NCBI RefSeq assembly: GCF_024502345.1
Contig: NZ_JALDNN010000001.1
DNA: 64,000 bases
Strand: one strand, 5' to 3'
DNA from: Escherichia coli
GTDB taxonomy: Bacteria > Pseudomonadota > Gammaproteobacteria > Enterobacterales > Enterobacteriaceae
Below, one piece after another: positions 9,504 through 44,163 of this stretch (the stretch's first letter is position 1; each line of letters starts with the position of its first letter). A program made the position numbers and the translations under genes. The notes under the pieces are model-generated. The model did not search any database. It was not told the origin of the DNA and saw only the letters and a list, made by a program, of their open reading frames with translations.

Positions 9504-10432
9504 CTTTCACCACTTCTGCTCCTGGCGATTTTCTTCTTTTGGTAGTGTCTCCTGGCTGCGGATATCAGATACTTTTCCGTCATTTTGTTGCAGAACTCTT
9601 CAATGTAGTTAATCATTTTCTGGTGTGCTTTCAGCTTTTCTTCCCCGGGGGACGCTTTCAGATAAATGTCCTCCTTTTCCACAAGCGCATTGACAAACTC
9701 CCCTAAACATCCCTGGTTATAAAGCGACGTGAAAAACAACACATCCCCCAGTCTCTCCAGTAACTGTGGTTTATCCCCGAAATGTTTTTTTATACTTTCA
9801 AAAGGTTTTCTATTTTCCGGATCAAAAAAAACACTTAATCCCAGTCGCTTATATTCCTGGTAAAAAAGTTCAAACGTCGGGGATGCTGAACGGCAAATAA
9901 ACGAAGACTGCGCCCATGGATTAAAATCTGTGACACGCCTCCCCTCCCGCACTTCCTGTCGTGTCAGCGGTGGTTCAGCAAACCAGGCGTCCAGCTCAGC
10001 CGAATCGTTATCCCTGCTCAAAACCTCATACAAACTGCCCGTGAACGGTTGAGCCGTTTGTTTTGTTGCTTCGCCTTCTGATTGTCTGAATCCATCCACT
10101 TTTCTCCGGATATTACGCGGAATCAGCATAAAAGGCGGGACATTAAGTGATAAACGTTTACCCGTCATGCGATACCATTGACCTACCTCAACCTTAATCC
10201 GTGTATCTGACCTTAGCTCAAGTGCCATTATGCTAAGCAGGTACAGATAACGCACCGTATAACGATTAAAATGTTTCTCCGGATCAAACGATTCGGACCG
10301 TTCTCCTCTGTACACGACTCTGCTGCGCTTCAGTATTCGCAGAGTATATTTCCAGGCCGGACTTTTACAAATGGCGGTAACTCTGGCCTTATTAACAATG
10401 TCGCGTAATGCATCAATCTGTTGTGCAGTCAT
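9500..10432 (-). CDS. Hypothetical protein, unknown function
   Basis: 310-aa ORF from ATG at 10432 with GGAGG 7 nt upstream; convergent with the preceding CDS and divergent from the GTPase gene. Confidence 0.4.
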   Translation of the reverse strand: MTAQQIDALRDIVNKARVTAICKSPAWKYTLRILKRSRVVYRGERSESFDPEKHFNRYTVRYLYLLSIMALELRSDTRIKVEVGQWYRMTGKRLSLNVPPFMLIPRNIRRKVDGFRQSEGEATKQTAQPFTGSLYEVLSRDNDSAELDAWFAEPPLTRQEVREGRRVTDFNPWAQSSFICRSASPTFELFYQEYKRLGLSVFFDPENRKPFESIKKHFGDKPQLLERLGDVLFFTSLYNQGCLGEFVNALVEKEDIYLKASPGEEKLKAHQKMINYIEEFCNKMTEKYLISAARRHYQKKKIARSRSGES

Positions 10433-10538
10433 CTCTTCCCTCCACACTTTGCCACTCCAGATTTTTTCACGCCCATATTACCTGAATGATAAACCGGATT
10501 AGTGTGATCCGGTTCAGTGAAATCAACAGGATACCGGT

Positions 10539-11423
10539 ATGTCATTCAGCCATTCTTCCCTCTCCGCACAAGTGAAATCATATCTGACGTTTCTTCCTGA
10601 AGAAATTCGCCAGAAAATCCTTGAACATCTCCACGGTGTTATTCATTACGAGCCCGTAATTGGCATTATGGGTAAATCCGGCACCGGCAAAAGCAGTCTG
10701 TGTAATGCCATTTTTCAGTCCCGTATCTGCGCCACGCATCCCCTGAACGGCTGCACCCGCCAGGCTCATCGTCTTACCCTGCAGCTCGGTGAACGCAGAA
10801 TGACGCTGGTCGATATGCCCGGCATTGGTGAGACACCGCAGCATGATCAGGAATACCGGGAGCTTTACCGTCAGTTACTGCCGGAACTGGATCTGATTAT
10901 CTGGATCCTGCGGGCTGATGAACGTGCGTATGCTGCTGATATTGCCATGCATCAGTTTTTACTGAATGAAGGTGCAGATCCCTCGCGTTTTCTGTTTGTT
11001 CTCAGCCATGCCGATCGCGTGTTTCCTGCTGAAGAATGGAACGACACAGAAAAATGCCCGTCCCGTCAGCAGGCGCTCTCACTGGCGACGGTGACAGCCC
11101 GGGTGGCAACCCTGTTCCCTTCATCATTTCCGGTACTCTCCGTTGCCGCACCTGTCGGCTGGAACCTTCCGGCGTTTGTGTCGCTGATGATCCACGCACT
11201 GCCACCACAGGCAACCAGTGCGGTTTATTCACATATCCGGGGGGAAAACCGCTCTGAACAGGCCCGGAAACACGCACAACAGACTTTTGGTGAAACCATC
11301 GGGAAAAGTTTTGACGACGCCGTTGCCCGTTTCAGTTTTCCGGCCTGGATGTTACAGCTTCTGCGCAAAACCCGGGACCGCATTATCCACCTGCTGGTCA
11401 CGCTGTGGGATCACCTGTTCTGA
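10539..11423 (+). CDS. YfjP/YkfA/YeeP-family GTPase (prophage-island GTP-binding protein)
   Basis: 294-aa ORF with P-loop GKSGTGKSS and switch motif DMPG; resembles CP4-type island GTPases. Confidence 0.8.
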   Translation: MSFSHSSLSAQVKSYLTFLPEEIRQKILEHLHGVIHYEPVIGIMGKSGTGKSSLCNAIFQSRICATHPLNGCTRQAHRLTLQLGERRMTLVDMPGIGETPQHDQEYRELYRQLLPELDLIIWILRADERAYAADIAMHQFLLNEGADPSRFLFVLSHADRVFPAEEWNDTEKCPSRQQALSLATVTARVATLFPSSFPVLSVAAPVGWNLPAFVSLMIHALPPQATSAVYSHIRGENRSEQARKHAQQTFGETIGKSFDDAVARFSFPAWMLQLLRKTRDRIIHLLVTLWDHLF

Positions 11424-11541
11424 ACGCCCCGGAGTCCCCCGTGGCAACCGTATACCTTTACACGACAACGGATTACGGTAACCACTGCCGTATACCGTCT
11501 GTCATTATCAATAACACGCTCTTTAATTTCAGAGGTCAGTC

Positions 11542-12219
11542 ATGAATACCAGAATTCTTTTTCCCCTGCTGTTCACTGTGGCATCATTCTCCGCCTCCGC
11601 CGGCAACTGGGCTGTCAAAAACGGCTGGTGTCAGACCATGACGGAAGATGGTCAGGCGCTGGTAATGCTGAAAAATGGCACGATTGGTATTACCGGCCTG
11701 ATGCAGGGATGCCCGAATAGCGTACAGACGCTCCTGGGCAACCGTATCAGTATTAACGGTAACCTGATCCCCACATCACAAATGTGTAATCAGCAGACAG
11801 GATTCAGGGCTGTTGAGGTGGAAGTCGGACAGGCGCCGGAAATGGTCAAAAAAGCCGTTCACTCCATAGCAGAGCGTGATGTGTCAGTTTTACAGGCATT
11901 TGGTGTACGAATGGAATTCACCCGCGGTGATATGCTGAAGGTCTGTCCGAAATTTGTCACATCACTTGCCGGTTTTTCCCCGAAACAGACACCCGCCATT
12001 AATAAAGATTCCGTCCTGCAGGCTGCCCGGCAGGCATACGCCCGGGAATATGACGAGGAAACAACAGAAACCGCTGATTTTGGCTCTTACGAAGTAAAAG
12101 GCAATAAGGTTGAGTTTGAAGTATTCAATCCTGAAGACCGTGCGTACGACAAAGTGACCGTCACGGTTGGTGCTGACGGTAATGCCACCGGCGCCAGCGT
12201 TGAATTTATCGGAAAATAG
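11542..12219 (+). CDS. Predicted secreted/periplasmic protein of unknown function
   Basis: 225-aa ORF with N-terminal signal peptide [20 protein letters not shown]; sits where CP4-type islands carry surface or lipoprotein genes. Confidence 0.5.
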
Positions 12220-12224
12220 CCGGT

Positions 12225-12458
12225 ATGTCGGACTGCCACCCTGTTTTATTGCCCGAAGGCCCTTTCTCACGCGAACAGGCGATGGCTGTCACAACAGCTT
12301 ACCACAATGTGCTTATTGAAGATGATCAGGGAACGCATTTCCGGCTGGTTATCCGCAATGCTGAAGGGCAGCTACGCTGGCGGTGCTGGAATTTTGAACC
12401 TGATGCCGGAAAACAGCTAAATCCGTATCTCGCCAGTGAGGGAATTCTCAGGCAATAA
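12225..12458 (+). CDS. DUF905-family protein (YkfF/YpjK-like)
   Basis: 77-aa [37 protein letters not shown]...WNFEPDAG matches the YkfF family. Confidence 0.7.
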
Positions 12459-12556
12459 ACGTCTTCATTTCATCCATCAGGCCACGTCTTCTCCGGGAGA
12501 CGTGGCTTTTTCATTTATTACACCAGTAAATCTTAATCACCAATAAGGAGCAAATC

Positions 12557-13375
12557 ATGCGATTAGCAAGTCGTTTTGGTTATGCGAACCAGATACGCCG
12601 TGACCGCCCCTTAACTCGCGAAGAACTGATGCAGGTCGTCCCCAGCGTATTCGGGGAAAATAAGCACACATCCAGAAGCGAGAACTATACCTGGATCCCC
12701 ACCATCACCGTGCTGGAAAGCCTGCAGCGGGAAGGCTTTCAGCCCTTCTTTGCCTGCCAGACCCGCGTACGTGACCCGGGCCGCCGGGGGTATACCAAAC
12801 ACATGCTGCGTCTGCGCCATGACGGGGAGATAAACGGACAACATGTCCCTGAAATCATCCTACTGAACTCCCATGACGGTACCTCCAGCTACCAGATGCT
12901 GCCGGGTTACTTCAGGTTCGTCTGCCAGAACGGCTGCGTCTGTGGTCAGTCTCTGGGGGAAGTGCGTGTTCCACACCGGGGAAATGTGGTGGACAGAGTC
13001 ATTGAAGGGGCTTACGAGGTGGTGGGCGTGTTTGACCGGATTGAGGAAAAGCGTGATGCCATGCAGTCGCTGGTCCTGCCGCCACCGGCACGCCAGGCGC
13101 TGGCACAGGCGGCGCTGACTTACCGTTATGGTGACGAACATCAGCCCGTCACCACCGCTGACATTCTGACACCACGACGCAGGGAGGATTACGGTAAGGA
13201 CCTGTGGAGTGCTTATCAGACCATCCAGGAGAATATGCTGAAAGGCGGGATTTCCGGGCGCAGCGCAAAAGGAAAACGTATCCATACCCGGGCCATTCAC
13301 AGCATCGGTACCGACATTAAGCTCAATCGCGCATTGTGGGTGATGGCAGAAACGCTGCTGGAGAGCATGCGCTGA
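12557..13375 (+). CDS. DUF932-family protein (YafZ/YfjQ-like)
   Basis: 272-aa ORF; size and position after DUF905 match YafZ/YfjQ of CP4-type islands. Confidence 0.65.
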   Translation: MRLASRFGYANQIRRDRPLTREELMQVVPSVFGENKHTSRSENYTWIPTITVLESLQREGFQPFFACQTRVRDPGRRGYTKHMLRLRHDGEINGQHVPEIILLNSHDGTSSYQMLPGYFRFVCQNGCVCGQSLGEVRVPHRGNVVDRVIEGAYEVVGVFDRIEEKRDAMQSLVLPPPARQALAQAALTYRYGDEHQPVTTADILTPRRREDYGKDLWSAYQTIQENMLKGGISGRSAKGKRIHTRAIHSIGTDIKLNRALWVMAETLLESMR

Positions 13376-13466
13376 TGCTGTTTCCCTGAAAGTACAGCCC
13401 TGACTCACGGCTGTACCAGTCTCCGGGCATTCTTCCATTCATTTACTTTTTATAAGGAATAACCTC

Positions 13467-13952
13467 ATGACAACCGTTTCGCATAATTCCACCACACCTT
13501 CTGTTTCCGTAACCGCTGCATCAGGGAATAACCCACCTCAGCTGGTTGCCACTCCCGTCCCTGATGAACAGTGCATCAGCTTCTGGCCGCAGCACTTTGG
13601 CCTCATTCCACAGTGGGTGACCCTGGAGCCCCGTATCTTCGGCTGGATGGACCGTCTGTGTGAAGACTACTGCGGTGGTATCTGGAATCTGTACACCCTG
13701 AACAACGGTGGGGCATTTATGGCACCCGAACCGGATGACGATGATGACGAAACATGGGTACTGTTCAATGCCATGAACGGTAACCGCGCTGAAATGAGTC
13801 CGGAAGCCGCCGGCATTGCTGCCTGTCTGATGACGTACAGTCATCATGCCTGTCGAACGGAGTGTTATGCCATGACGGTCCACTATTACCGGCTGCGGGA
13901 TTACGCCCTACAGCATCCGGAATGCAGCGCCATTATGCGCATCATCGACTGA
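13467..13952 (+). CDS. Antirestriction protein (KlcA/ArdB-like, YfjX/YafX family)
   Basis: 161-aa ORF; position and sequence resemble CP4 antirestriction proteins. Confidence 0.7.
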   Translation: MTTVSHNSTTPSVSVTAASGNNPPQLVATPVPDEQCISFWPQHFGLIPQWVTLEPRIFGWMDRLCEDYCGGIWNLYTLNNGGAFMAPEPDDDDDETWVLFNAMNGNRAEMSPEAAGIAACLMTYSHHACRTECYAMTVHYYRLRDYALQHPECSAIMRIID

Positions 13953-14444
13953 ATGGAGACAGGGACAATGCAGCAGCTTTCCTTTCTGCCCGGAGAGATG
14001 ACGCCCGGCGAGCGCAGTCTCATTCTGCGGGCCCTGAAAACCCTGGACCGCCATCTTCATGAACCCGGCGTGGCCTTCACCTCCACCCGTGCGGCACGGG
14101 AATGGCTGATTCTGAACATGGCGGGACTGGAGCGTGAAGAATTCCGGGTGCTGTATCTGAATAACCAGAATCAGCTGATTGCCGGTGAGACCCTCTTCAC
14201 AGGCACCATCAACCGCACGGAAGTCCATCCCCGGGAAGTGATTAAACGCGCCCTGTATCACAATGCCGCAGCCGTGGTGCTGGCACACAATCACCCGTCA
14301 GGTGAAGTCACACCCAGTAAGGCTGACCGCCTTATTACGGAACGTCTGGTACAGGCACTGGCCCTGGTGGATATCCGGGTGCCGGACCATCTGATAATCG
14401 GTGGCAGCCAGGTTTTCTCCTTTGCTGAACACGGTCTGCTTTAA
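13953..14444 (+). CDS. RadC-like JAB-domain protein (YeeS/YfjY/YkfG family)
   Basis: 163-aa ORF with JAMM-like motif HNHPSGEVTPSKAD. Confidence 0.8.
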   Translation: METGTMQQLSFLPGEMTPGERSLILRALKTLDRHLHEPGVAFTSTRAAREWLILNMAGLEREEFRVLYLNNQNQLIAGETLFTGTINRTEVHPREVIKRALYHNAAAVVLAHNHPSGEVTPSKADRLITERLVQALALVDIRVPDHLIIGGSQVFSFAEHGLL

Positions 14445-14512
14445 CCCGTCACCATCACAACCACATCACACTTGTTTTCACTTTTATCTTCTGTCTTCAG
14501 AGGTATCCCATC

Positions 14513-14734
14513 ATGAAAATTATCACCCGTGGTGAAGCCATGCGTATTCACCAACAGAATCCTGCATCCCGTCTTTTTCCGTTCTGTACCGGTAAGTACC
14601 GCTGGCACGGCAGTGCTGAAACGTATACCGGTCGTGAAGTGCAGGATATTCCCGGTGTGCTGGCCGTGTTTGCTGAACGCCGTAAGGACAGTTTTGGCCC
14701 GTATGTCCGGTTGATGAGCGTCACTCTGAACTGA
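14513..14734 (+). CDS. DUF987-family protein (YeeT/YpjJ-like)
   Basis: 73-aa ORF immediately upstream of the antitoxin, as in CP4-44 yeeT-yeeU. Confidence 0.7.
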   Translation: MKIITRGEAMRIHQQNPASRLFPFCTGKYRWHGSAETYTGREVQDIPGVLAVFAERRKDSFGPYVRLMSVTLN

Positions 14735-14752
14735 GTCAGAAAGGGGATTCTG

Positions 14753-15784
14753 ATGAGCAGCATTATCACCACCACAGTGTATACGCTGGATGAACTTTCC
14801 TGCCCTTCTGCACGGGAAAAAGCCCGCGACTGGTACCGTGTGCACCATTCTGACAGCAACTGGTATGAAAACGTGTACGAGGACTTCAGGGCGGTCTGTG
14901 GCATTTTCGGAATTGACCTCCGCCAGCGCGTTTTCCGGCTCAGCAACGGCAGGTTTATGGAAGAGCCGTGCATCTGGTTCAGCGGATTCTGCAGCCAGGG
15001 GGACGGAGCCTGTTTTGAAGGACGCTGGCACTGGCAGTCAGCAACAGCCAGGAGGCTCCGGGAGTATGCCACACAGGACCATGAACTCCATCGTATCGCG
15101 GATGCCCTGCAGGCGGTGCAGAAACGTAACTTCTGGCAACTGCAGGCTGAAATCCACCACCGGGGACGTTACTGCCATCCGTACAGCATGGATATCACTG
15201 TTACCCGGAACAGTCCGACTGGTCAGGCTATGACAGCCGATGCGGAAGCCGCTGTCAGCGAAGCCCTGCGCGACCTGGCCTTCTGGTTGTACCGTCAGCT
15301 GGAAAACGAGTACGACAGGCTGACCTCTGATGCCGCTGTTGATGAGGCCCTTCTCATCAACGAATACACCTTCACCGAAGCCGGTCTGCGCGCCGGCTTA
15401 CCTGAGGACTTTATCGTGTCAGACAAACTCCATGAGACAAATTATCCCGACGACCATAACGACCGCCTCTGGTGGGGACTGCTCTGCACCGTGACGCCCT
15501 GTTTCGGGGCACGTCTGGTGCAGGAGGGTAACCGGTTGCATTACCTTGTCGACCGCGCCGGCATCAGAGGCCTGTTCAGCGATGCAGATGCGTACCACCT
15601 GGACCAGGCCTTTCCGCTGCTGATGAAACAACTGGAGCTCATGCTCACCAGCGGTGAACTGAATCCCCGCCATCAGCATACCGTGACACTGTATGCGAAG
15701 GGGCTGACCTGTGAAGCCGACACCCTCGGCTCCTGTGGTTACGTTTATCTGGCTGTTTATCCGACGCCCGAAACGAAAAAGTAA
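14753..15784 (+). CDS. CbeA/YeeU/YfjZ-type antitoxin (core 15416-15784 from an internal GTG) read in frame with an upstream ~220-aa domain of unknown function
   Basis: C-terminal 122 aa (VSDKLHETNYPDDHNDRLWWGLLCTVTPCFGARLVQEGNRLHY...) match the CbeA antitoxin; there is no stop codon between the 14753 start and the antitoxin core. Confidence 0.6.
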   Translation: MSSIITTTVYTLDELSCPSAREKARDWYRVHHSDSNWYENVYEDFRAVCGIFGIDLRQRVFRLSNGRFMEEPCIWFSGFCSQGDGACFEGRWHWQSATARRLREYATQDHELHRIADALQAVQKRNFWQLQAEIHHRGRYCHPYSMDITVTRNSPTGQAMTADAEAAVSEALRDLAFWLYRQLENEYDRLTSDAAVDEALLINEYTFTEAGLRAGLPEDFIVSDKLHETNYPDDHNDRLWWGLLCTVTPCFGARLVQEGNRLHYLVDRAGIRGLFSDADAYHLDQAFPLLMKQLELMLTSGELNPRHQHTVTLYAKGLTCEADTLGSCGYVYLAVYPTPETKK

Positions 15785-15873
15785 CTCTCCAGAATAACCT
15801 TCTACTCCGGCCTGGTGCTTTCACCACGCCACTTTTCCATTTTTCATCTCTGCATATCAGGAAAATCTTCAGT

Positions 15874-16251
15874 ATGAAAACATTACCTGTATTACCCGGG
15901 CAGGCGGCCAGTTCACGCCCGTCTCCGGTTGAAATCTGGCAGACACTGCTCACCCGACTGCTGGATCAGCACTACGGCCTTACGCTGAATGACACACCGT
16001 TCGCTGATGAACGTGTGATTGAGCAGCATATTGAGGCAGGCATTTCACTGTGCGATGCGGTGAACTTTCTCGTTGAAAAATACGCACTGGTACGTACCGA
16101 CCAGCCGGGATTCAGCGCCTGTACCCGTTCTCAGTTAATAAACAGTATTGATATCCTCCGGGCACGCCGGGCAACCGGCCTGATGACACGCGACAACTAC
16201 AGAACGGTAAATAACATTACCCTGGGTAAACATCCGGGGGCGAAACAATGA
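15874..16251 (+). CDS. CbtA/YeeV/YkfI-family toxin (cytoskeleton-targeting type IV TA toxin)
   Basis: 125-aa ORF beginning MKTLPVLPGQAAS...; immediately downstream of the antitoxin. Confidence 0.8.
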   Translation: MKTLPVLPGQAASSRPSPVEIWQTLLTRLLDQHYGLTLNDTPFADERVIEQHIEAGISLCDAVNFLVEKYALVRTDQPGFSACTRSQLINSIDILRARRATGLMTRDNYRTVNNITLGKHPGAKQ

Positions 16252-16670
16252 AACTGGCCCTGACGCTGGAAGCCGACAGCATTAATGCGCAGGCGCTGAA
16301 CATGGGGCGCATTGTCGTTGACGTCGATGGTATTGAGCTCGCTGAACTGATTAACAAAGTCGCTGAAAACGGTTATTCACTCCGCGTGGTGGATGAACGT
16401 GACGCTACCGAAACACCGGCGACTTCTGCCAGCCCTCATCAGTTGCCGGAAGACAATACAGTGATACAGAGCGTGATGCCATTAACCACTGAAACAGCGC
16501 TGGATATCCTCATTGCGTGGCTGCAGGACAATATTGACTGCGAATCGGAAATTATCTTTGACAACAATGAGGACAAAACGGATTCGGCAGCACTGTTGCC
16601 CTGTATTGAACAGGCCAGGGAGGATATCCGTACCCTGCGCCAACTGCAGCTTCTGTACCAGAACCAGTGA
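16248..16670 (+). CDS. YeeW-like protein
   Basis: 140-aa acidic ORF overlapping the toxin stop by 4 bp, the position YeeW takes after yeeV. Confidence 0.55.
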   Translation: MKLALTLEADSINAQALNMGRIVVDVDGIELAELINKVAENGYSLRVVDERDATETPATSASPHQLPEDNTVIQSVMPLTTETALDILIAWLQDNIDCESEIIFDNNEDKTDSAALLPCIEQAREDIRTLRQLQLLYQNQ

Positions 16671-16754
16671 GTCTTACTCACCAGACTTCATTCCACTGAC
16701 GCCAGCCTGAACAGGGCTGGCGTTTTCATTTATCTGCAAAAAGGAATATCGATT

Positions 16755-17597
16755 ATGTCTGAAATCACAGCCCCCCGTCCGGAAGTGGTCAACGGGCATA
16801 CGGACGTTATCTGTTCAACCAGTATCCGCCACATTCTGGCTGTACGAAAGAGTACGCTGCTGCAAATCGACACACTTACCCGGCAACTGGCAGAAATCTC
16901 AGCAATGACAGAAAGTATTGGCGGTAAAACCGCACTGGACTGGGCGATGAAACAGGATTTTCGCTGTGGTTGCTGGCTGATGGAAAAACCTGAAACGGCA
17001 ATGAAAGCCATCACCCGCAATCTCGATCGCGAAATCTGGCGTGACCTGATGCAACGTTCCGGGATGCTGTCATTAATGGATGCGCAGGCCCGTGAGACAT
17101 GGTACCGGTCACTGGAGCACGATAATTTTCCGGAAATCAGTGAAGCGAACATTCTGAGCACATTTGAACAACTACACCAGAATAAGGATGAGGTGTTTGA
17201 GCGAGGGGTGATCAACGTCTTCAGGGGACTGAACTGGAATTACAAAACCAATTGCCCCTGCAAATTTGGCAGTAAAATTATCGTCAACAACCTAGTGAGG
17301 TGGGACCGGTGGGGGTTTCATCTTATCACCGGGCAACAGACTGACCGACTCGTCGACCTGGAAAGAATGCTACATCTGTTCAGCGGCAAACCGATCCCCG
17401 ACAACCGGGAAAACATCACTATTCGTCTGGATGGTCACATCCAGTCCGTTCAGGGTAAAGAGCGCTATGAAGACGAGATGTTCATCATTAAATACTTTAA
17501 GAAGGGATCTGCACACATCACTTTCAAAAGGCTGGAACTGATTGACAGAATTAACGATATAATAGCCAGGTACTTTCCTTCTGTACTCTCAGCCTGA
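16755..17597 (+). CDS. Hypothetical protein (conserved island-end protein, function unknown)
   Basis: 280-aa ORF with clean start context; last gene before IS1. Confidence 0.4.
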   Translation: MSEITAPRPEVVNGHTDVICSTSIRHILAVRKSTLLQIDTLTRQLAEISAMTESIGGKTALDWAMKQDFRCGCWLMEKPETAMKAITRNLDREIWRDLMQRSGMLSLMDAQARETWYRSLEHDNFPEISEANILSTFEQLHQNKDEVFERGVINVFRGLNWNYKTNCPCKFGSKIIVNNLVRWDRWGFHLITGQQTDRLVDLERMLHLFSGKPIPDNRENITIRLDGHIQSVQGKERYEDEMFIIKYFKKGSAHITFKRLELIDRINDIIARYFPSVLSA

Positions 17598-17876
17598 TCC
17601 CAAGTGTGATTCCCTTTCGATATCAAAAGGGACTGCGGGTATAATTGAGGGTACATTTTTAATCAAACCAAGTAAATTATATTAATATCAATATGATAAA
17701 AGAAATTTTCGATTCCGAGTCCGGCACCAAATTCATATAAACGGACCTCCACGGAGGTCCGTTTTTCGTTTCAGGACGCCACGATTTAAGCGTTCTGCCG
17801 CCAAATCAATTCTACCGAACTCAACCAGATTCTCCCCACATCACCAGCAATTTGCGGGCATGGTAATGACTCCAAC

Positions 17877-18380
17877 TTATTGATAGTGTTTTATGTTCAG
17901 ATAATGCCCGATGACTTTGTCATGCAGCTCCACCGATTTTGAGAACGACAGCGACTTCCGTCCCAGCCGTGCCAGGTGCTGCCTCAGATTCAGGTTATGC
18001 CGCTCAATTCGCTGCGTATATCGCTTGCTGATTACGTGCAGCTTTCCCTTCAGGCGGGATTCATACAGCGGCCAGCCATCCGTCATCCATATCACCACGT
18101 CAAAGGGTGACAGCAGGCTCATAAGACGCCCCAGCGTCGCCATAGTGCGTTCACCGAATACGTGCGCAACAACCGTCTTCCGGAGCCTGTCATACGCGTA
18201 AAACAGCCAGCGCTGGCGCGATTTAGCCCCGACGTATCCCCACTGTTCGTCCATTTCCGCGCAGACGATGACGTCACTGCCCGGCTGTATGCGCGAGGTT
18301 ACCGACTGCGGCCTGAGTTTTTTAAATGGCGGAAAATCGTGTTGAGGCCAACGCCCATAATGCGGGCGGTTGCCCGGCAT
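17877..18380 (-). CDS. insB: IS1 InsB (normally expressed as an InsAB' frameshift product)
   Basis: 167-aa ORF ending ...[15 protein letters not shown], with stop 15 nt from the IS end. Confidence 0.9.
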
Positions 18381-18574
18381 CCAACGCCATTCATGGCCAT
18401 ATCAATGATTTTCTGGTGCGTACCGGGTTGAGAAGCGGTGTAAGTGAACTGCAGTTGCCATGTTTTACGGCAGTGAGAGCAGAGATAGCGCTGATGTCCG
18501 GCGGTGCTTTTGCCGTTACGCACCACCCCGTCAGTAGCTGAACAGGAGGGACAGCTGATAGAAACAGAAGCCAC
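18299..18574 (-). CDS. insA: IS1 InsA
   Basis: 91-aa [46 protein letters not shown]... Confidence 0.9.
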
Positions 18575-18704
18575 TGGAGCACCTCAAAAACACCATCATA
18601 CACTAAATCAGTAAGTTGGCAGCATCACCAATCATTCTTACTCCCTTTGAATTACCCGCCTCATCAGAGATAATGCTTAAGAAATTTGTCACACAAGGAA
18701 GCTG

Positions 18705-20336
18705 ATGAGACATTCATTGCCCTACCGCATGTTACGCAAACGTCCGATGAAATTGAGTACCACTGTGATCTTAATGGTCAGCGCGGTACTGTTCTCGGTG
18801 CTATTGGTGGTGCATCTGATTTACTTCTCGCAAATCAGTGATATGACGCGAGACGGGCTAGCCAACAAGGCACTGGCAGTGGCGCGTACTCTCGCCGACT
18901 CGCCGGAAATCCGTCAGGGCTTGCAGAAAAAACCGCAGGAGAGTGGCATCCAGGCCATCGCGGAAGCCGTGCGCAAACGCAACGATCTGCTGTTTATTGT
19001 CGTTACCGATATGCAAAGTCTTCGCTACTCGCATCCTGAAGCCCAGCGTATTGGTCAGCCATTTAAAGGTGATGACATCCTTAAAGCGCTGAATGGCGAA
19101 GAAAATGTCGCTATCAATCGCGGTTTTCTGGCGCAAGCTTTACGCGTATTTACTCCCATCTACGATGAAAATCATAAACAAATTGGCGTGGTGGCGATCG
19201 GCCTTGAGTTAAGCCGCGTGACCCAACAGATCAATGACAGTCGCTGGAGCATTATCTGGTCAGTATTATTTGGCATGCTGGTCGGACTGATTGGCACCTG
19301 CATTCTGGTTAAAGTACTGAAAAAAATCCTTTTCGGCCTGGAACCCTACGAAATCTCCACGCTGTTTGAGCAACGCCAGGCCATGTTGCAGTCTATCAAA
19401 GAAGGCGTCGTTGCCGTGGACGATCGCGGCGAGGTCACGCTGATCAACGATGCCGCACAAGAATTGCTGAATTACCGTAAGTCGCAGGACGATGAGAAAC
19501 TGTCGACGCTCAGCCACTCATGGTCACAGGTGGTAGATGTCTCGGAAGTGTTACGCGACGGTACGCCGCGCCGCGACGAAGAGATTACGATTAAAGACCG
19601 GCTATTACTGATCAACACCGTTCCGGTGCGCAGTAATGGCGTTATCATCGGTGCCATTTCAACCTTCAGGGACAAAACTGAAGTTCGTAAACTGATGCAG
19701 CGACTCGACGGTCTGGTCAACTATGCTGATGCACTTCGTGAACGATCCCACGAATTTATGAATAAATTGCATGTGATTCTCGGATTATTGCATCTGAAGA
19801 GTTATAAGCAGTTGGAAGATTACATTCTCAAAACAGCCAATAACTATCAGGAAGAGATTGGCTCTATGCTGGGTAAGATCAAATCTCCGGTTATCGCTGG
19901 TTTTTTAATCAGCAAGATTAACCGCGCGACCGATTTAGGCCATACGCTGATTTTAAACAGTGAAAGCCAGCTGCCAGACAGCGGCAGTGAGGACCAGGTC
20001 GCGACGCTGATTACCACATTGGGAAATCTGATAGAAAACGCGCTGGAAGCATTAGGGCCGGAACCCGGTGGCGAAATTAGCGTAACATTGCACTACCGTC
20101 ACGGCTGGCTGCACTGCGAAGTTAACGATGATGGACCGGGGATCGCACCCGACAAAATCGATCACATTTTTGACAAAGGTGTCTCGACAAAAGGAAGCGA
20201 GCGAGGCGTCGGTTTAGCACTTGTCAAACAACAGGTAGAAAATCTCGGCGGCAGCATCGCCGTGGAATCGGAACCCGGGATTTTCACACAATTTTTTGTC
20301 CAGATACCCTGGGACGGGGAGAGGTCGAACAGATGA
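18705..20336 (+). CDS. dcuS: C4-dicarboxylate sensor histidine kinase DcuS
   Basis: 543-aa ORF recognised as DcuS; 4-bp overlap with dcuR. Confidence 0.95.
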   Translation: MRHSLPYRMLRKRPMKLSTTVILMVSAVLFSVLLVVHLIYFSQISDMTRDGLANKALAVARTLADSPEIRQGLQKKPQESGIQAIAEAVRKRNDLLFIVVTDMQSLRYSHPEAQRIGQPFKGDDILKALNGEENVAINRGFLAQALRVFTPIYDENHKQIGVVAIGLELSRVTQQINDSRWSIIWSVLFGMLVGLIGTCILVKVLKKILFGLEPYEISTLFEQRQAMLQSIKEGVVAVDDRGEVTLINDAAQELLNYRKSQDDEKLSTLSHSWSQVVDVSEVLRDGTPRRDEEITIKDRLLLINTVPVRSNGVIIGAISTFRDKTEVRKLMQRLDGLVNYADALRERSHEFMNKLHVILGLLHLKSYKQLEDYILKTANNYQEEIGSMLGKIKSPVIAGFLISKINRATDLGHTLILNSESQLPDSGSEDQVATLITTLGNLIENALEALGPEPGGEISVTLHYRHGWLHCEVNDDGPGIAPDKIDHIFDKGVSTKGSERGVGLALVKQQVENLGGSIAVESEPGIFTQFFVQIPWDGERSNR

Positions 20337-21052
20337 TCAATGTATTAATTATCGATGACGACGCAATGGTCGCGGAGCTGAATCGCCGATACGTAGCACA
20401 AATCCCAGGCTTTCAATGCTGTGGAACAGCCTCGACGCTGGAGAAAGCCAAAGAGATTATCTTCAATAGCGATACGCCTATCGACCTGATATTGCTCGAT
20501 ATCTATATGCAAAAAGAGAACGGGCTCGATTTACTGCCTGTCCTGCATAACGCGCGTTGCAAAAGTGATGTGATTGTCATCTCCTCCGCAGCCGATGCGG
20601 CAACCATTAAAGATTCGCTGCATTACGGTGTCGTGGATTACCTGATCAAACCCTTCCAGGCTTCCCGCTTTGAAGAGGCGCTCACCGGCTGGCGGCAAAA
20701 GAAAATGGCGCTGGAAAAACATCAGTATTATGACCAGGCCGAGCTTGATCAGTTAATCCACGGCAGCAGCTCCAACGAGCAGGATCCTCGTCGCTTGCCA
20801 AAAGGCTTAACGCCGCAGACGTTACGCACGCTGTGCCAGTGGATTGACGCGCATCAGGACTATGAGTTTTCAACCGACGAGCTGGCTAACGAGGTTAACA
20901 TCTCGCGTGTTTCCTGCCGTAAATACCTCATCTGGCTGGTCAACTGCCACATCTTGTTCACCAGTATCCATTATGGCGTCACGGGGCGTCCGGTTTACCG
21001 TTACCGTATTCAGGCAGAACACTACTCACTGCTGAAACAATATTGCCAATAA
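20333..21052 (+). CDS. dcuR: Response regulator DcuR
   Basis: 239-aa receiver + HTH protein, translationally coupled to dcuS. Confidence 0.95.
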   Translation: MINVLIIDDDAMVAELNRRYVAQIPGFQCCGTASTLEKAKEIIFNSDTPIDLILLDIYMQKENGLDLLPVLHNARCKSDVIVISSAADAATIKDSLHYGVVDYLIKPFQASRFEEALTGWRQKKMALEKHQYYDQAELDQLIHGSSSNEQDPRRLPKGLTPQTLRTLCQWIDAHQDYEFSTDELANEVNISRVSCRKYLIWLVNCHILFTSIHYGVTGRPVYRYRIQAEHYSLLKQYCQ

Positions 21053-21622
21053 CGGATCGCTGGTTATCTGTAAGTAATAATTATTACCGTAATGCAAAAT
21101 ATCCCTGGCACAAGTTACATCCTTCATCAGTAAAACTTGTGCCAGATCAAATATAATTATCCCTCCATCATCGTTAAAAATTAATATCTCTTCAGATGAA
21201 CGGTGTTTTTAATTTCAAAACGCTAACAAAAGTTAATTAACTATTATGTCACCCGCATTATGTGTATTTTTACCCACAAATGGGTAGATCAGATTAATCT
21301 TTAAACCTAATGATATCTGCCCTGAGAACAAAAAATAGACCGATAAATATCAATAAGATAACAGCAAACAAAACATTAACATCTGCGCAGTACAAACTAT
21401 AAACCCATCGCCAGAGAGTTTTTCTCTCTGAAAAAGCCGCTTATCACAGTGCATAAATTTGCCGCTGCTTTAATCAGCCAATATTTACTGTGAGGTATTT
21501 GCTAAAGCCGGTAACGACCAAACGGATATTTAGTCAGGCTCTGAAAACAGTTCATACAAAACAGAACGTGACTGTGATCTATTCAGCAAAAATTTAAATA
21601 GGATTATCGCGAGGGTTCACAC

Positions 21623-22963
21623 ATGTTATTTACTATCCAACTTATCATAATACTGATATGTCTGTTTTATGGTGCCAGAAAGGGTGGTATCGCGCTGGGT
21701 TTATTAGGCGGTATCGGTCTGGTCATTCTGGTCTTCGTCTTCCACCTTCAGCCAGGTAAACCACCGGTTGATGTCATGCTGGTTATCATTGCGGTGGTGG
21801 CGGCATCGGCGACCTTGCAAGCTTCGGGCGGTCTTGATGTCATGCTGCAAATTGCCGAGAAGTTGCTGCGCCGCAACCCGAAATATGTCTCAATTGTCGC
21901 GCCGTTTGTGACCTGTACGCTGACCATTCTTTGCGGTACGGGTCATGTGGTTTACACCATTCTGCCGATCATCTACGACGTCGCCATTAAGAACAACATC
22001 CGTCCGGAACGTCCGATGGCGGCAAGTTCTATCGGTGCACAGATGGGGATTATCGCCAGTCCGGTGTCGGTTGCGGTCGTGTCTCTGGTTGCAATGCTGG
22101 GTAATGTCACCTTTGATGGTCGCCATCTTGAGTTCCTCGACCTGCTGGCAATCACCATTCCATCGACGTTAATCGGTATCCTGGCGATCGGTATCTTCAG
22201 CTGGTTCCGCGGTAAAGATCTGGATAAAGACGAAGAGTTCCAGAAATTCATCTCAGTACCGGAAAACCGTGAGTATGTTTACGGTGATACCGCGACGCTG
22301 CTCGATAAAAAACTGCCGAAAAGCAACTGGCTGGCAATGTGGATTTTCCTCGGTGCAATCGCTGTAGTCGCACTTCTTGGTGCTGATTCGGACCTGCGTC
22401 CATCCTTCGGCGGCAAACCGCTGTCGATGGTACTGGTTATTCAGATGTTTATGCTGCTGACCGGGGCGCTGATTATTATCCTGACCAAAACCAATCCCGC
22501 GTCTATCTCAAAAAACGAAGTCTTCCGTTCCGGTATGATCGCCATCGTGGCGGTGTACGGTATCGCATGGATGGCAGAAACCATGTTCGGTGCGCATATG
22601 TCTGAAATTCAGGGCGTACTGGGTGAAATGGTGAAAGAGTATCCGTGGGCCTATGCCATTGTTCTGCTGCTGGTTTCCAAGTTTGTAAACTCTCAGGCTG
22701 CGGCGCTGGCGGCGATTGTTCCGGTCGCGCTGGCGATCGGCGTTGATCCGGCATACATCGTGGCTTCAGCACCGGCTTGCTACGGTTATTACATCCTGCC
22801 GACTTATCCGAGCGATCTGGCAGCGATTCAGTTTGACCGTTCCGGCACCACCCACATCGGTCGCTTCGTCATCAACCACAGTTTTATTCTGCCGGGGTTG
22901 ATTGGTGTGAGCGTATCGTGCGTCTTCGGCTGGATCTTCGCCGCGATGTACGGGTTCTTATAA
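21623..22963 (+). CDS. dcuB: Anaerobic C4-dicarboxylate transporter DcuB
   Basis: 446-aa polytopic membrane ORF downstream of dcuSR. Confidence 0.95.
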
Positions 22964-23040
22964 ATGCACTTTGCGTGCCGCCCGTGACTACGCGGCACGC
23001 CATTTTCGAATAACAAATACAGAGTTACAGGCTGGAAGCT

Positions 23041-24687
23041 ATGTCAAACAAACCCTTTATCTACCAGGCACCTTTCCCGATGGGGAAAGACAATACCGAA
23101 TACTATCTACTCACTTCCGATTACGTTAGCGTTGCCGACTTCAACGGCGAAACAATCCTGAAAGTGGAACCAGAAGCCCTGACTCTGCTGGCGCAGCAAG
23201 CCTTTCACGACGCTTCTTTCATGCTCCGCCCGGCACACCAGAAACAGGTTGCGGCTATTCTTCACGATCCAGAAGCCAGCGAAAACGACAAGTACGTGGC
23301 GCTGCAATTCTTAAGAAACTCCGAAATCGCCGCCAAAGGCGTGCTGCCGACCTGCCAGGATACCGGCACCGCGATCATCGTCGGTAAAAAAGGCCAGCGC
23401 GTGTGGACCGGTGGCGGTGATGAAGAAGCGCTGTCGAAAGGCGTCTATAACACCTATATCGAGGATAACCTGCGCTACTCGCAAAACGCGGCGCTGGACA
23501 TGTACAAAGAGGTCAACACCGGCACTAACCTGCCTGCACAAATCGACCTGTACGCGGTAGATGGCGATGAGTACAAATTCCTTTGCGTTGCGAAAGGCGG
23601 CGGCTCTGCCAACAAAACCTATCTCTACCAGGAAACCAAAGCCCTGCTGACTCCCGGCAAACTGAAAAACTTCCTCGTCGAGAAAATGCGTACCCTCGGT
23701 ACTGCAGCCTGCCCGCCGTACCATATCGCGTTTGTGATTGGCGGTACGTCTGCGGAAACCAACCTGAAAACCGTTAAGTTAGCAAGCGCTCACTATTACG
23801 ATGAACTGCCGACGGAAGGGAACGAACATGGTCAGGCGTTCCGCGATGTCCAGCTGGAACAGGAACTGCTGGAAGAGGCCCAGAAACTCGGTCTTGGCGC
23901 GCAGTTTGGCGGTAAATACTTCGCGCACGACATTCGCGTTATCCGTCTGCCACGTCACGGCGCATCCTGCCCGGTCGGCATGGGCGTCTCCTGCTCCGCT
24001 GACCGTAACATTAAGGCGAAAATCAACCGCGAAGGTATCTGGATCGAAAAACTGGAACACAATCCAGGTCAGTACATTCCACAAGAACTGCGCCAGGCCG
24101 GTGAAGGCGAAGCGGTGAAGGTCGACCTTAACCGCCCGATGAAAGAGATCCTCGCCCAGCTTTCGCAATATCCGGTTTCCACTCGTTTGTCGCTCACCGG
24201 CACCATTATTGTGGGTCGAGATATTGCACACGCCAAGCTGAAAGAGCTGATTGACGCCGGTAAAGAACTTCCGCAGTACATCAAAGATCACCCGATCTAC
24301 TACGCGGGTCCGGCGAAAACGCCTGCCGGTTATCCATCAGGTTCACTTGGCCCAACCACCGCAGGTCGTATGGACTCCTATGTGGATCTGCTGCAATCCC
24401 ACGGCGGCAGCATGATCATGCTAGCGAAAGGTAACCGCAGTCAGCAGGTTACCGACGCGTGTCATAAACACGGCGGCTTCTACCTCGGTAGCATCGGCGG
24501 TCCGGCGGCGGTACTGGCGCAGCAGAGCATCAAGCATCTGGAATGCGTCGCTTATCCGGAGCTGGGTATGGAAGCTATCTGGAAAATCGAAGTAGAAGAT
24601 TTCCCGGCGTTTATCCTGGTCGATGACAAAGGTAACGACTTCTTCCAGCAAATCGTCAACAAACAGTGCGCGAACTGCACTAAGTAA
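23041..24687 (+). CDS. fumB: Fumarate hydratase class I, anaerobic (FumB)
   Basis: 548-aa ORF beginning [31 protein letters not shown]; position after dcuB. Confidence 0.95.
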
Positions 24688-24809
24688 CCTCTTCGGCCCA
24701 GCGCCTGGCAGCATGCTGCCAGGTGATCCCCCTGGGCCACCTCTTTTGCGATTGTAATTTCACGCTTGCTGGTGAATAGTCAGTATTTTCCCTGACTTGC
24801 GAACTCACC

Positions 24810-25439
24810 ATGACCCGCACACTCAAGCCGTTAATTCTTAACACCGGCGCACTGGCGCTAACGTTAATCCTCATTTATACCGGCATTTCGGCCCATGACA
24901 AACTCACCTGGCTGATGGAAGTGACACCGGTGATTATTGTCATGCCGCTACTGCTTGCCACCGCGAAACGTTATCCGTTAACGCCGCTGCTCTATACGCT
25001 CATTTTCTTTCACGCCATCATCCTGATGGTCGGCGGACAATACACCTACGCGAAAGTCCCCGTTGGTTTTGAGGTGCAGGAATGGCTGGGGTTGAGCCGT
25101 AATCCGTATGACAAGCTGGGGCATTTTTTCCAGGGGCTGGTGCCTGCACTGGTGGCACGAGAGATCCTTGTGCGCGGGATGTACGTGCGCGGACGTAAAA
25201 TGGTGGCGTTTCTGGTCTGCTGCGTGGCGCTGGCGATAAGCGCGATGTATGAATTAATCGAGTGGTGGGCGGCGCTGGCAATGGGCCAGGGAGCGGATGA
25301 TTTTCTCGGCACCCAGGGCGACCAGTGGGACACGCAATCCGATATGTTCTGCGCGCTACTTGGCGCATTAACGACGGTGATATTCCTCGCTCGCTTTCAT
25401 TGCCGCCAGCTACGGCGCTTTGGCTTAATAACCGGATAA
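24810..25439 (+). CDS. yjdF: Inner membrane protein YjdF
   Basis: 209-aa multi-TM ORF between fumB and melB, as in K-12. Confidence 0.85.
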   Translation: MTRTLKPLILNTGALALTLILIYTGISAHDKLTWLMEVTPVIIVMPLLLATAKRYPLTPLLYTLIFFHAIILMVGGQYTYAKVPVGFEVQEWLGLSRNPYDKLGHFFQGLVPALVAREILVRGMYVRGRKMVAFLVCCVALAISAMYELIEWWAALAMGQGADDFLGTQGDQWDTQSDMFCALLGALTTVIFLARFHCRQLRRFGLITG

Positions 25440-25454
25440 CAACGTGCACTTTGT

Positions 25455-25557
25455 TGATGCCGGATGCGGCGTGAATTCCTTATCCGGTCTACAAAATTTG
25501 CAAATCCAAAGCATTCCATTAAGACGTGGCCTGATAAACATATCGCATCAGGCCATT
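25455..25557. repeat. REP (repetitive extragenic palindromic) elements
   Basis: gatgccggatgcggcgtgaa...ttatccggtctac and gacgtggcctgataaacatatcgcatcaggcc motifs between convergent yjdF and melB. Confidence 0.7.
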
Positions 25558-25577
25558 TTCGTTAGCTATTGTCCACG

Positions 25578-26999
25578 TCAGGCTTTCACATCACTCACTG
25601 CACCGACCGGAATATCAGCATGAACAAGCTCGGGCGGTACTTTGCGATATTTATCCAGCAGATGAATCTGGATCCTGCGCAGCGTGTCGCCATTGAGGCG
25701 ATAGAAACGGAAGTAGAGAATCAGCGTTACCATGAAAAACAGAGTCGGTAGAGCAATCATAATAAACTGCATACCTAATAGGGCTTGCGTAGACTGTTCA
25801 ACATTCGGTACATAGCCAATCATCCCTAACACAACCGCAATGAAAAAAGCCGCAAAGGCTGAACCGCCCTTCACCACCATAGTCTGCACGGAGTAAGCGA
25901 TGCTTTCACAGCGTACGTGCAGTTTATATTCACCGTAATCAACGGTATCTGCCACCATGATGACCTGTAATACCCAGAAAAGCGCCGTTCCCACATTCAG
26001 CAAAATACCCGCAATCACAATGAGGACGACGTTGTGATAGCTCATTAATGCCATTAACAGGAGAACACCACAGCTTAACACCGGAAGAATAGATGCTCCG
26101 GCCCATAAAATGCGTCGGGATAATGATTTAACTAAGCGTGGGAAGAATACTAACGTCACCAGGTTAGCAGCTCCCGCATACGACAGATAATAGGGGAACA
26201 AATCCGCATCACCGATAACATATGAGAAATAATAGATAGCAAAGCCGGTAATAATGTTGCTGGCTACATTATAAGCAAGAGCCATACCCAAGAGGCATGA
26301 AAGCTGATCGTTTTTATAAATAAGCGCAACGATGGCTTTAAGTGTCAGATGGCTTCCTTCAGCAGACGGTTGATTGTCTGACGAAAAGACTTCATGCACA
26401 TTGCGCAGAGTGATGATGGTTGAAACAATAAAAAAGGCGATCAGTACCAGTGTGAACATCTGAAAGCCAAATCCCCGATCGCCACCGCCGACATAATTAA
26501 CAAATGGTAGCGTCACACCTGCCGTAACAAAGCCCGCCAGACTGGCAAAAAAACGCGGATAAGGAACCAGTTGTTCACGCTCACGTTTATCGAGCGTGAT
26601 GGTTGGAACCAGCGACCAGAAGGGAATATCCATAATGGTGTAAGTCATGCCCCAGAGGATGTAGGTCACGCAAACAAAGACAATCTGAGTAGTACCTTCA
26701 AACAGATGCGCACTAAAGAGGAGAAATAAGATTACAGAGTTTGCCAACGTACCGATCAGGATCCAGGGTTTGAACTTACCCCATCGCGATCGCGTAGCAT
26801 TTACAATCCATCCCATAATCGGATCGTTAATAGCATCCCAGATCCTCGCCACCAGAAACAAAGTACCGACCAAACCCACAGACAGCCCGACGACATCGGT
26901 GTAGTAATACATGAGGTACATATACACAATGCCGATCGCAAAATCCTTCCCGAACGCTCCAAATCCATAACTGAGTTTTGTAGTCATTGAAATGCTCAT
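25578..26999 (-). CDS. melB: Melibiose:Na+ symporter MelB
   Basis: ORF recognised as MelB from [35 protein letters not shown]; start placed at that Met. Confidence 0.95.
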
Positions 27000-27101
27000 A
27001 GGGTATCGGGTCGCTGTTACCAACGCCCGCCTTCTGTTATTGGTATCGTCAGAGGTGTGCGCCGGAATAAATCCCCCGGCGCAGTAGCGTTTAGTCGCGT
27101 T

Positions 27102-28457
27102 TTAACGGTGCAACCAGCCTGGCAGCCAGTCGCCGTGGGCGGCAATCAGGTCGTCAACAAGAGCATATATTTCGTCAATGCCCAGCACGGCGGCAGTATG
27201 CGGGTCCATCATCGCGGCGTGGTAAACACGGTCGCGATTTTCCGTAAGAATAGCTTCGGTCAGCAGCGTCTGTACGTTAATGTTGGTTTGCATCAGGGCG
27301 GCCAGATGCGAAGGTAGCGTACCGACTTTGGTCGGCTGAATGCCATTAGCATCAACCAGACAGGCTACTTCCACGCAACATCCTTGTGGCAGGTTATCAA
27401 TCAAACCATCGTTACGGACGTTGCCGTAAATCACACTCGGCTCGCCCGTCCAGATAGCGTTCATGATTGTGCTGGCATATTCCCGTGACGGTTTAATATC
27501 AATCCGGGAGGCGTTTTTATACTCCTCCAGCTCTTTATGCCAGTTCGCCAGCTGCTCGACGCAGCGTTTCGGGTACTCATCCAGCGGTACTTTATAACGC
27601 TCAATCAAATCCTCACGACCTGGCTTAATAAACCACGGTGTGTACTCAGCAAAATGTTCTGACGATTCCGTGACGAAATAGCCCAGCTTTTTGAACATTT
27701 CGTAGCGCACAATATTCTGGCAGCGAGTATTGCCATGAATATTCGGCTTCGGTGCCTGCCCTGCGTCATAAGCCGCCAGCAGTTCCGGGTAGAGATTCAC
27801 GTAACTGCCGTCGGCGGTTTTGCGCTCCAGCTCCAGGTAAAACGCCATATGGTTGATACCTGCGCAACGGTAACGCAGCGTAGCCGGGTCGATATTGAGG
27901 TCACGCGCCAGCTCTTCCGCCGTTCCCTGCACCGAATGGCACAGCCCGACCTGTTTGATATGCGGATAGCGGGCATACATCGCCCAGGTATTCATCGCCA
28001 TTGGGTTAACATAGTTGAGCATGGTGGCATCGGGGCAGACTTCCGTCATGTCCTCGCAAATTTGCCACAGATGCGGAATGGTACGTAGCGCGCGCATAAT
28101 ACCGCCCGGCCCCAACGTATCGGCAATGGTTTGTTCCAGACCATGCCGCTTACAGACCTCGAAATCAGTCACCGTGCAAGGTTCATAACCGCCAATCTGA
28201 AATGCCACCACGACAAAATCGGCATCCTCTAAGGCTTCTTTCTGTTGGGTGTGGCAGGTGATTTTGCCGCTGGCCCCTGCTGAATCCATCAGCTTACGCA
28301 CCACAATATGCGACTCTTCCAGGCGGGTGGGGTCAATGTCCATCAGGGCAATATGCGCCGTTTTCAGCGCCTCGCGATGGAACACATCACCAAGAATATT
28401 TTTAACGAAAATCGTCGAACCAGCGCCGATAAATGTAATTTTGGGTGCAGACATCAT
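27102..28457 (-). CDS. melA: Alpha-galactosidase MelA
   Basis: 451-aa ORF with N-terminal Rossmann motif FIGAGSTIF; upstream of melB. Confidence 0.95.
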   Translation of the reverse strand: MMSAPKITFIGAGSTIFVKNILGDVFHREALKTAHIALMDIDPTRLEESHIVVRKLMDSAGASGKITCHTQQKEALEDADFVVVAFQIGGYEPCTVTDFEVCKRHGLEQTIADTLGPGGIMRALRTIPHLWQICEDMTEVCPDATMLNYVNPMAMNTWAMYARYPHIKQVGLCHSVQGTAEELARDLNIDPATLRYRCAGINHMAFYLELERKTADGSYVNLYPELLAAYDAGQAPKPNIHGNTRCQNIVRYEMFKKLGYFVTESSEHFAEYTPWFIKPGREDLIERYKVPLDEYPKRCVEQLANWHKELEEYKNASRIDIKPSREYASTIMNAIWTGEPSVIYGNVRNDGLIDNLPQGCCVEVACLVDANGIQPTKVGTLPSHLAALMQTNINVQTLLTEAILTENRDRVYHAAMMDPHTAAVLGIDEIYALVDDLIAAHGDWLPGWLHR

Positions 28458-28739
28458 GCAGATCTCCTGGCTTGCTTGAATAACTTCATCATGGCAGGCG
28501 AATCTGCAGAAAACCTCCGGCTTCCAGGTTGAGCATTCCCATAAACTCAGATCCTGCGTGAAGCAGCAGTAAATCTGAGTTTATGGGAATAATTTACCTG
28601 AAAAGCAGAGTTTTCGGCCTCATGATGCTCGGACACTCCCCTCGCCCCTCTGGGAAGAGGGTGAAAACCGTGCTCCCACTCGCAGTCATCCTCCCTCACT
28701 CCTGCCATAATTCTGATATTCCAGGAAAGAGAGCCATCC

Positions 28740-29648: not shown

Positions 29649-29846
29649 AGACGATATCAGTATCAGCCAAAAAAATAGTTTAGCCGTCGATAATAAGCAG
29701 TGAAAATAATTTAAAATAATCACATAACGCATTGTTTATAAAAATAAATATTTCAAAAATGTTTGTTTTTCACGCGCTTTACAGCCCGAAAAGGCCGGAA
29801 GATACTTGCCCGCAACGAAGATTCCTTCATAACCGGGTAAGCAATG

Positions 29847-43970: not shown

Positions 43971-43985
43971 TTGTATTGTGATCGG

Positions 43986-44163
<178 letters not shown>

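Follow-up and report, generated by a model that had tools for sequence, protein, structure and literature searches.

Lysine decarboxylase is a trait by which diagnostic tests tell E. coli and Shigella apart, and the literature associates the cadaverine-free state with higher virulence in invasive and some Shiga-toxin-producing lineages. Insertion sequences such as IS1 leave recognizable traces: a simple IS1 insertion creates a 9-bp direct duplication of its target (occasionally 8-14 bp), and the two open reading frames of the element are joined by a -1 frameshift at an A6C motif. Adjacent deletions made by IS1 (in the gal region) and intramolecular transposition of IS1 were reportedly described by Reif and Saedler in 1975 and by Turlan and Chandler in 1995.

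Loss or inactivation of the cad locus is convergent and repeated, and often associated with insertion sequences, in Shigella, enteroinvasive E. coli (EIEC) and Shiga toxin-producing E. coli (STEC) O117:K1:H7 (PMC5723341, PMC4156367, PMC3739510, PMC7373316). The lesions themselves are varied: cadA was lost via inversion-associated deletions in Sf301 and Sb227, is affected by a frameshift in Sd197 and by an IS insertion in Ss046, and most EIEC carry lesions in cadC (PMC5723341, PMC4156367, PMC3739510, PMC7373316). STEC O117:K1:H7 (ST504) retains cadA, and an aerobactin-bearing insertion has removed its cadC 5' end (PMC3739510).

The window analyzed here is a 64-kb stretch of E. coli DNA that contains the right arm of a genomic island, an IS1 element and dcuS. 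Our main reading, to which we assign a probability of roughly 0.55, is that the IS1 marks a 10,681-bp deletion that arose most likely via one-step intramolecular transposition.

Structure of the IS1 joint

The IS1 element (Table 1) begins with ggtaatgactcc and ends with gttggcagcatcacc. It was aligned over positions 1-768 with four copies annotated as IS1A or IS1B in complete E. coli genomes, with 0 indels and 99.1-99.5% identity. Its length (~768 bp), its inverted repeats (~23 bp) and its insA/insB' genes with an A6C motif are those of the IS1 family, and the 91-aa and 167-aa ORFs correspond to positions 1-81 and 76-199, respectively, of NF033558 (the NCBIfam IS1 transposase model, 199 positions). 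The left inverted repeat (IRL) is oriented toward dcuS and the transposase reading direction is away from it. This is the only IS1 copy in the 64-kb window. The 9-mers that border it (tgcgggcat and aatcattct) are unequal, and a repeat check around 17862-18629 found no displaced target duplication adjoining either end. At a rearrangement joint no target duplication would be expected, and its absence is no argument against the identity of the element as IS1.

Table 1. Features at and around the IS1 joint (positions in the window)
Feature	Position	Strand	Details
Right arm of tRNA-Phe-integrated genomic island	1-17707	.	CP4-like module; window begins inside island
attR, 22-nt partial tRNA-Phe (pheU) 3' end	17708-17729	+	blastn, L001 17574-17552
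Native pheU-downstream backbone, 132 bp	17730-17861	+	Ends at left breakpoint
pheU terminator hairpin	17739-17764		Within 132-bp backbone piece
IS1, complete, 768 bp	17862-18629	-	Intact insA/insB'
IS1 imperfect terminal inverted repeats	17861-17884 / 18607-18630		IRR = 17862-17884, IRL = 18607-18629
insB'	17877-18380	-	167 aa
insA	18299-18574	-	91 aa
A6C frameshift motif	18323-18317	-	AAAAAAC
insA promoter-like site	18622-18595	-	
Retained dcuS-upstream DNA, 75 bp	18630-18704	+	Begins at right breakpoint, K-12 4351737
dcuS predicted promoter core	-35 TTGAAT 18647-18652; -10 GATAAT 18669-18674	+	Consensus scan and conservation
dcuS, intact	18705-20336	+	543 aa, 99.8% to K-12
dcuR, intact	20333-21052	+	239 aa, 100% to K-12

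The window was compared by blastn with the corresponding locus of K-12 MG1655 (NC_000913.3 4345000-4366000, referred to here as L001). Window positions 17708-17861 match the last 23 nt of K-12 pheU and the 132 bp downstream of it (98.7% identity), while the window from 18628 on matches the 75 bp upstream of dcuS followed by dcuS, dcuR, dcuB, fumB and yjdF (98.6% identity). Both flanks match the K-12 minus strand, so that their ancestral relative orientation is retained, and because they are collinear an inversion is excluded. At the left breakpoint, the last kept base is K-12 4362419 (L001 17420) and the ancestral sequence is ...caatttgcgggcat/atcccaattcggg (with the stroke at the breakpoint); K-12 and two relatives (L027 and L029) read atcccaattcggg... 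at the position where the window has IS1. At the right breakpoint, the first kept base is K-12 4351737 (L001 6738) and the ancestral sequence is ...cctatatagcc/aatcattcttactcc. The ancestral sequences at both breakpoints were seen in K-12 and in the same two relatives.

The missing interval is 10,681 bp in length (K-12 4351738-4362418) and carries the yjdQ integrase remnant, cadC, cadB, cadA, dtpC, lysU, ghoT, ghoS, yjdJ and yjdI. No copy of yjdI, yjdJ, ghoST, lysU or cadCBA was found within the whole 64-kb window. The single match to the missing K-12 segment is 83 bp at 73% identity inside adiA, which is read as probable paralogy with cadA. Because each breakpoint falls, to the base, on a terminus of the full-length IS1, the element made the joint and did not insert into a deletion that was already there. 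The locus thus has separated collinear ancestral flanks, exact breakpoints and an undeleted arrangement in close relatives, as is typical of an IS-bounded deletion, and judged by this alignment the IS1 is a backbone-to-backbone deletion joint of ~10.7 kb.

An earlier note on this DNA had described a complete IS1 with unequal flanking 9-mers, ending 75 bp upstream of dcuS (ATG at 18705), and had regarded it as more likely a recombination or deletion endpoint than a simple insertion; it had also listed yjdI, yjdJ, ghoST, lysU and the cad genes as absent. These observations are borne out, as in K-12 the two flanks share one orientation and are separated by 10,681 bp, and the genes are missing by blastn over all 64 kb. 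The alignment to K-12 that the note had asked for placed both breakpoints exactly (4362419 and 4351737), and the displaced 9-bp duplication that it had named beforehand as evidence against its reading was searched for and is absent. An ordinary simple insertion whose duplication has been displaced or has decayed was considered and ruled out: nothing speaks for it except the presence of IS1, and with flanks that are ancestrally 10.7 kb apart and no adjacent repeat its probability is negligible.

The same note went too far in having the IS1 form the island-backbone junction and island DNA abut dcuS directly. Positions 17708-17861 are the pheU end and native downstream DNA (98.7% to K-12), such that attR and 132 bp of backbone separate the IS1 from the island. 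The true island-backbone junction lies at ~17729/17730, with backbone on both sides of the IS1. As in other islands integrated at tRNA-Phe genes, a 22-nt direct repeat of the tRNA 3' end is followed by native tRNA-downstream DNA; the attR copy is one G shorter than the pheU gene end (22 vs 23 nt). The window contains no complete tRNA, and the integrase end of the island lies outside it. The island module encodes a GTPase, DUF932, antirestriction, RadC, CbeA/CbtA and DUF4942 proteins.

Related islands are found at both pheU and pheV. E. coli M159-1 carries an island at pheU that is 95% identical over 98% of positions 1-17707 (17.8 kb) and is followed by yjdQ'-cadC-cadB-cadA. CP068807 has the same layout (the island, then intact yjdQ'-cadCBA) and is 99.8% identical over the last 5.1 kb. 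Window positions 12755-17729 (4,975 bp) are 100% identical, with 0 mismatches, to islands at pheV in GCA_048688155.1 and GCA_020774035.1, which adjoin gsp type II secretion genes; the matches to pheV-located islands end at 17729. The closest backbone relative (L027) carries a different pheU island that is only ~90% identical. A look-up with the DUF4942 protein of the island matched many unrelated pheV and pheU islands. The product of a 343-aa ORF (14753-15784) matches the CbeA antitoxin family; in many islands CbeA is 122 aa in length, sometimes with a separate upstream ORF, and the long 343-aa form is also present in two other loci (L008 and L010).

The dcuS promoter and the right-hand neighborhood

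A consensus scan of the dcuS strand gave one sigma-70-like site, TTGAAT-16-GATAAT (18647-18674). The 200 bp upstream of dcuS were aligned for ten taxa (an E. coli relative, E. albertii, E. whittamii, four Citrobacter, Salmonella arizonae, Trabulsiella and Intestinirhabdus). The sole block conserved across genera is CCTTTGAATTAC..CATCAGrGATAAT, corresponding to window positions 18644-18674, and alignment between genera is impossible further upstream. This block begins 15 bp past the IS1 end and lies entirely within the retained 75 bp. As no usable mapped dcuS transcription start was found in the literature, the promoter call rests on the consensus scan and on cross-genus conservation.

Based on these results, dcuSR is predicted to keep its own conserved core promoter. 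The claim of the earlier note that the IS1 replaces the native dcuS promoter was not upheld, since the only conserved block (18644-18674) is inside the retained 75 bp. The DNA upstream of ~17 bp before the dcuS -35 is now the IRL of IS1, an end known to carry an IHF site, and any effect of the joint on dcuSR would be at most quantitative. A hybrid outward promoter, composed of TTGGCA in the IRL and a -10 in the flank, was also considered; the -10 partners (tactcc) are poor by eye and the scan reports none. The reading of the locus is corrected accordingly: island and dcuS are not fused, and no regulatory effect on C4-dicarboxylate sensing is to be assumed.

To the right of the IS1, all of the K-12 genes compared are full length (38/38), with no stops or frameshifts. 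An exact-protein look-up with the DcuS of the window returned no record. Two further differences from K-12 were observed in the window. The D-allose operon (neither alsK nor alsR gave a match) and most of rpiB (K-12 4306822-4313662) are missing, with ~200 bp in their place (window about 56299-56508) and no IS found there. A ~100-bp tandem repeat between yjdM and yjdN (window 43981-44163) has fewer copies than in K-12 (~five units). In the upstream region of dcuS in Citrobacter, draft contigs of many species (L040, L042-L047, L049, L055 and L080) end 245-480 bp before the gene, which suggests a repeat or another assembly-breaking element in this genus.

Close relatives and the origin of the deletion

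Among complete E. coli genomes, the best matches over the 24 kb on the dcuS side of the IS1 belong to the O157:H7/O55:H7 group of phylogroup E (99.3-99.4%). When FumB and LysU were looked up as exact proteins, closer draft and metagenome assemblies emerged. In the 7.1 kb common to them and the window, 2 SNPs separate L019 from the window and 3 SNPs separate L020/L027 (GCA_019583735.1) from it. L020/L027 keeps the whole cadC-cadB-cadA-dtpC-lysU-ghoTS-yjdJI segment, and no IS1 was found in its cadC-to-yjdI segment; L019, as far as it was fetched, contains part of dtpC through yjdI. Because relatives only 2-3 SNPs away keep the segment without IS1, the loss is recent and strain-level.

Other close assemblies, relatives of window positions 18630-32687, have different structures in this region. 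The contig of L025, which is 1 SNP from the window, opens with the IS1 IRL at a joint (L025 1-60) that lies 68 bp upstream of dcuS, 7 bp nearer to the gene than the joint of the window, and the contig of L026 (10 SNPs; L026 1-20) begins at the same base without attached IS1 sequence. The contig of L035 begins with the same IS1 end (IRL) joined inside cadB (L035 1-175); over 7.1 kb L022 shows no difference from L035, and its contig seems to begin near the same point. In L032 and L034 (3-5 SNPs over 7.1 kb), the first 525 bp of cadC are replaced (L032 2344-4321, L034 829-2806). In all three IS1 joints (window, L025 and L035) the IRL faces dcuS, and in contigs of the L025/L035 type the flank beyond the IS1 is not contained in the contig. 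This tight group of assemblies (0-5 SNPs in 7.1 kb) has at least four cad-region states, the states seen being an intact segment, the 10.7-kb IS1 deletion, IS1 at -68, IS1 inside cadB and a replaced cadC 5' end. It is conceivable, though we consider it unlikely, that these are nested deletions from one resident IS1 near the pheU island, under ongoing selection against lysine decarboxylase in an undecayed non-Shigella clone.

With respect to the joint in the window, IS1 would first have inserted at one of two sites, either downstream of pheU or upstream of dcuS. One IS1 end would then have attacked the remaining site within the same molecule, an intramolecular transposition producing an "adjacent deletion". 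The intervening 10,681 bp would have left as a non-replicating circle, with a single IS1 staying behind without a target duplication. Among the 5,426 complete E. coli genomes there was no intermediate with IS1 and a duplication at either exact site. Scans of JGI metagenomes for the junctions gave 0 matches to the left junction and 0 to either variant of the right junction.

The same joint could have been made by two direct IS1 copies, at the pheU-downstream and the dcuS-upstream site and each with its own duplication, between which RecA-dependent recombination deleted 10.7 kb and left half of each duplication. The product predicted for this route is identical to the observed joint; intramolecular transposition and IS1 x IS1 recombination cannot be separated by the window. 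Suitable insertions do occur: IS1 is present within ~630 bp downstream of pheU in 51 genomes and upstream of dcuS in 17. In CUWW10, which served as a positive control, a simple IS1 insertion interrupts the yjdI-dcuS spacer and is flanked by the 9-bp duplication cggaatctt, and in L025/L026 the IS1 end is just 7 bp away, at -68 (with IS1 sequence attached in L025 only). However, this route requires three events since the split from relatives that are 2-3 SNPs off and have no IS1 at the sites checked, the 64-kb window contains only one IS1, and IS1 at either exact site was found in no genome (complete genomes and JGI metagenomes). Recombination between two copies is thus possible but, on balance, doubtful to us. 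One-step intramolecular transposition is modestly preferred, because it needs two events compared with three for the two-copy route, given that the nearest intact relative is without IS1.

Two explanations would leave the cad genes in the genome. If IS1 were present at both sites, an assembler may have collapsed the repeat and skipped the cad segment; the IS1 repeat lies beside a 132-bp unique piece bounded by a multi-copy island arm, which is difficult for short reads, and the contigs of draft relatives break exactly at IS1 ends. An artefact of this kind is nevertheless very improbable, as the window crosses the whole IS1 and continues unbroken for 64 kb, and closed complete E. coli genomes have the same architecture. 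Alternatively, the cad segment may have been relocated by IS1-flanked transposition or inversion, with cadBA functional elsewhere, since our view is limited to 64 kb of the genome. We give even less credence to relocation: the ancestral relative orientation of the flanks leaves no place for a simple inversion, cad sequence is absent from the 64 kb, and cadA is plainly missing in 4% of complete E. coli genomes.

Comparison with other losses of the cad region

Of 5,426 complete E. coli genomes, 215 (~4%) have no cadA. In eight complete genomes pheU and dcuS are no more than 1.4 kb apart (≤1.4 kb), and in all of these (8/8) an IS1 lies between them. B-1109, MDK6L1 and LR-33 resemble the window in that pheU (or the attR of an island) is joined to dcuS via one IS1 without a duplication. 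Their breakpoints in L001 coordinates are 17229/6869, 17261/7001 and 16950/6984, respectively, compared with 17420/6738 for the window, and in these three strains the region was deleted independently, each time with IS1 at the boundary. By their annotation and span, YJ6, PT62/LP5-1, PO06101, O157:H16 Res13, ET245 and 300709 have the same arrangement; in 300709, a cadC stub and then an oppositely oriented IS1 lie between the island and dcuS. The exact junction of the window occurs in 0/5,426 complete genomes, and the other IS1-bounded pheU-dcuS deletions mostly differ from it in their breakpoints. No contiguous match to the junction was found in the 5,426 complete E. coli genomes, and those matches that covered the query fully were split in two by additional DNA. 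That breakpoints cluster close to pheU and dcuS in the complete genomes is partly a product of query design. A shared IS1 orientation was considered as evidence and rejected, as the search joins only pieces on the same strand and 300709 has the opposite orientation.

A further group of about ten complete genomes (the Iso00270 group; e.g. NZ_CP095125.1 4184548-4187634), from humans and a frog, has a common span of 3,087 bp. According to the features under the match, the arrangement in this group is pheU, integrase remnant, IS1, yjdJ, yjdI and dcuS. This suggests either that a cad-deleted clone is circulating or that these genomes share a hot spot.

The predicted consequences for the strain in the window follow from gene content. 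It would be expected to be lysine-decarboxylase-negative and cadaverine-free, and to be without the inducible LysRS and the GhoTS module. The locus adds one more precisely mapped case of a recurrent event, in which several cadA-less genomes have IS1 at the joint. Beyond the predicted phenotype and the mapping, it is an ordinary strain-level structural variant of a known event type.

As in the "black holes" of Shigella and EIEC, an insertion sequence is involved; cadA is missing here from its native site and from the 64-kb window. In contrast to those genomes, the window has a clean 10.7-kb deletion bounded by IS1, 38/38 genes intact and a single IS1 in its 64 kb, and its near-identical relatives retain cadCBA. 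Within the window there is no sign of IS expansion or gene decay of the Shigella/EIEC type, and its best matches among complete genomes are ordinary phylogroup-E strains. The resemblance to Shigella/EIEC cad loss proposed in the earlier note is therefore fair as an analogy (PMC5723341, PMC4156367, PMC3739510), but with 38/38 genes intact and one IS1 a Shigella/EIEC setting is not indicated. An origin from Shigella dysenteriae 1, considered given the O157/O55:H7 matches, was rejected: there is one IS1 in 64 kb, no pseudogenes were found, near-identical relatives have intact cadCBA, and Sd197 keeps a frameshifted cadA (PMC3739510).

STEC O117 and SHI-3 at pheU are similar to this locus in that foreign DNA lies at pheU or in cadC and is associated with a lysine-decarboxylase-negative state. 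They are not equivalent in extent, as O117 keeps cadA, whereas the window has lost the whole locus through yjdI. We would guess that the assemblies with a replaced cadC 5' end (L032/L034) are O117.

The closest parallel is with the classical adjacent deletions of IS1. The window differs from these in coming from a natural isolate and in that an intermediate with IS1 at its resident site was not seen. It shares with them a single full-length IS1, a deletion that starts from the terminus of the element, the absence of a target duplication and collinear flanks.
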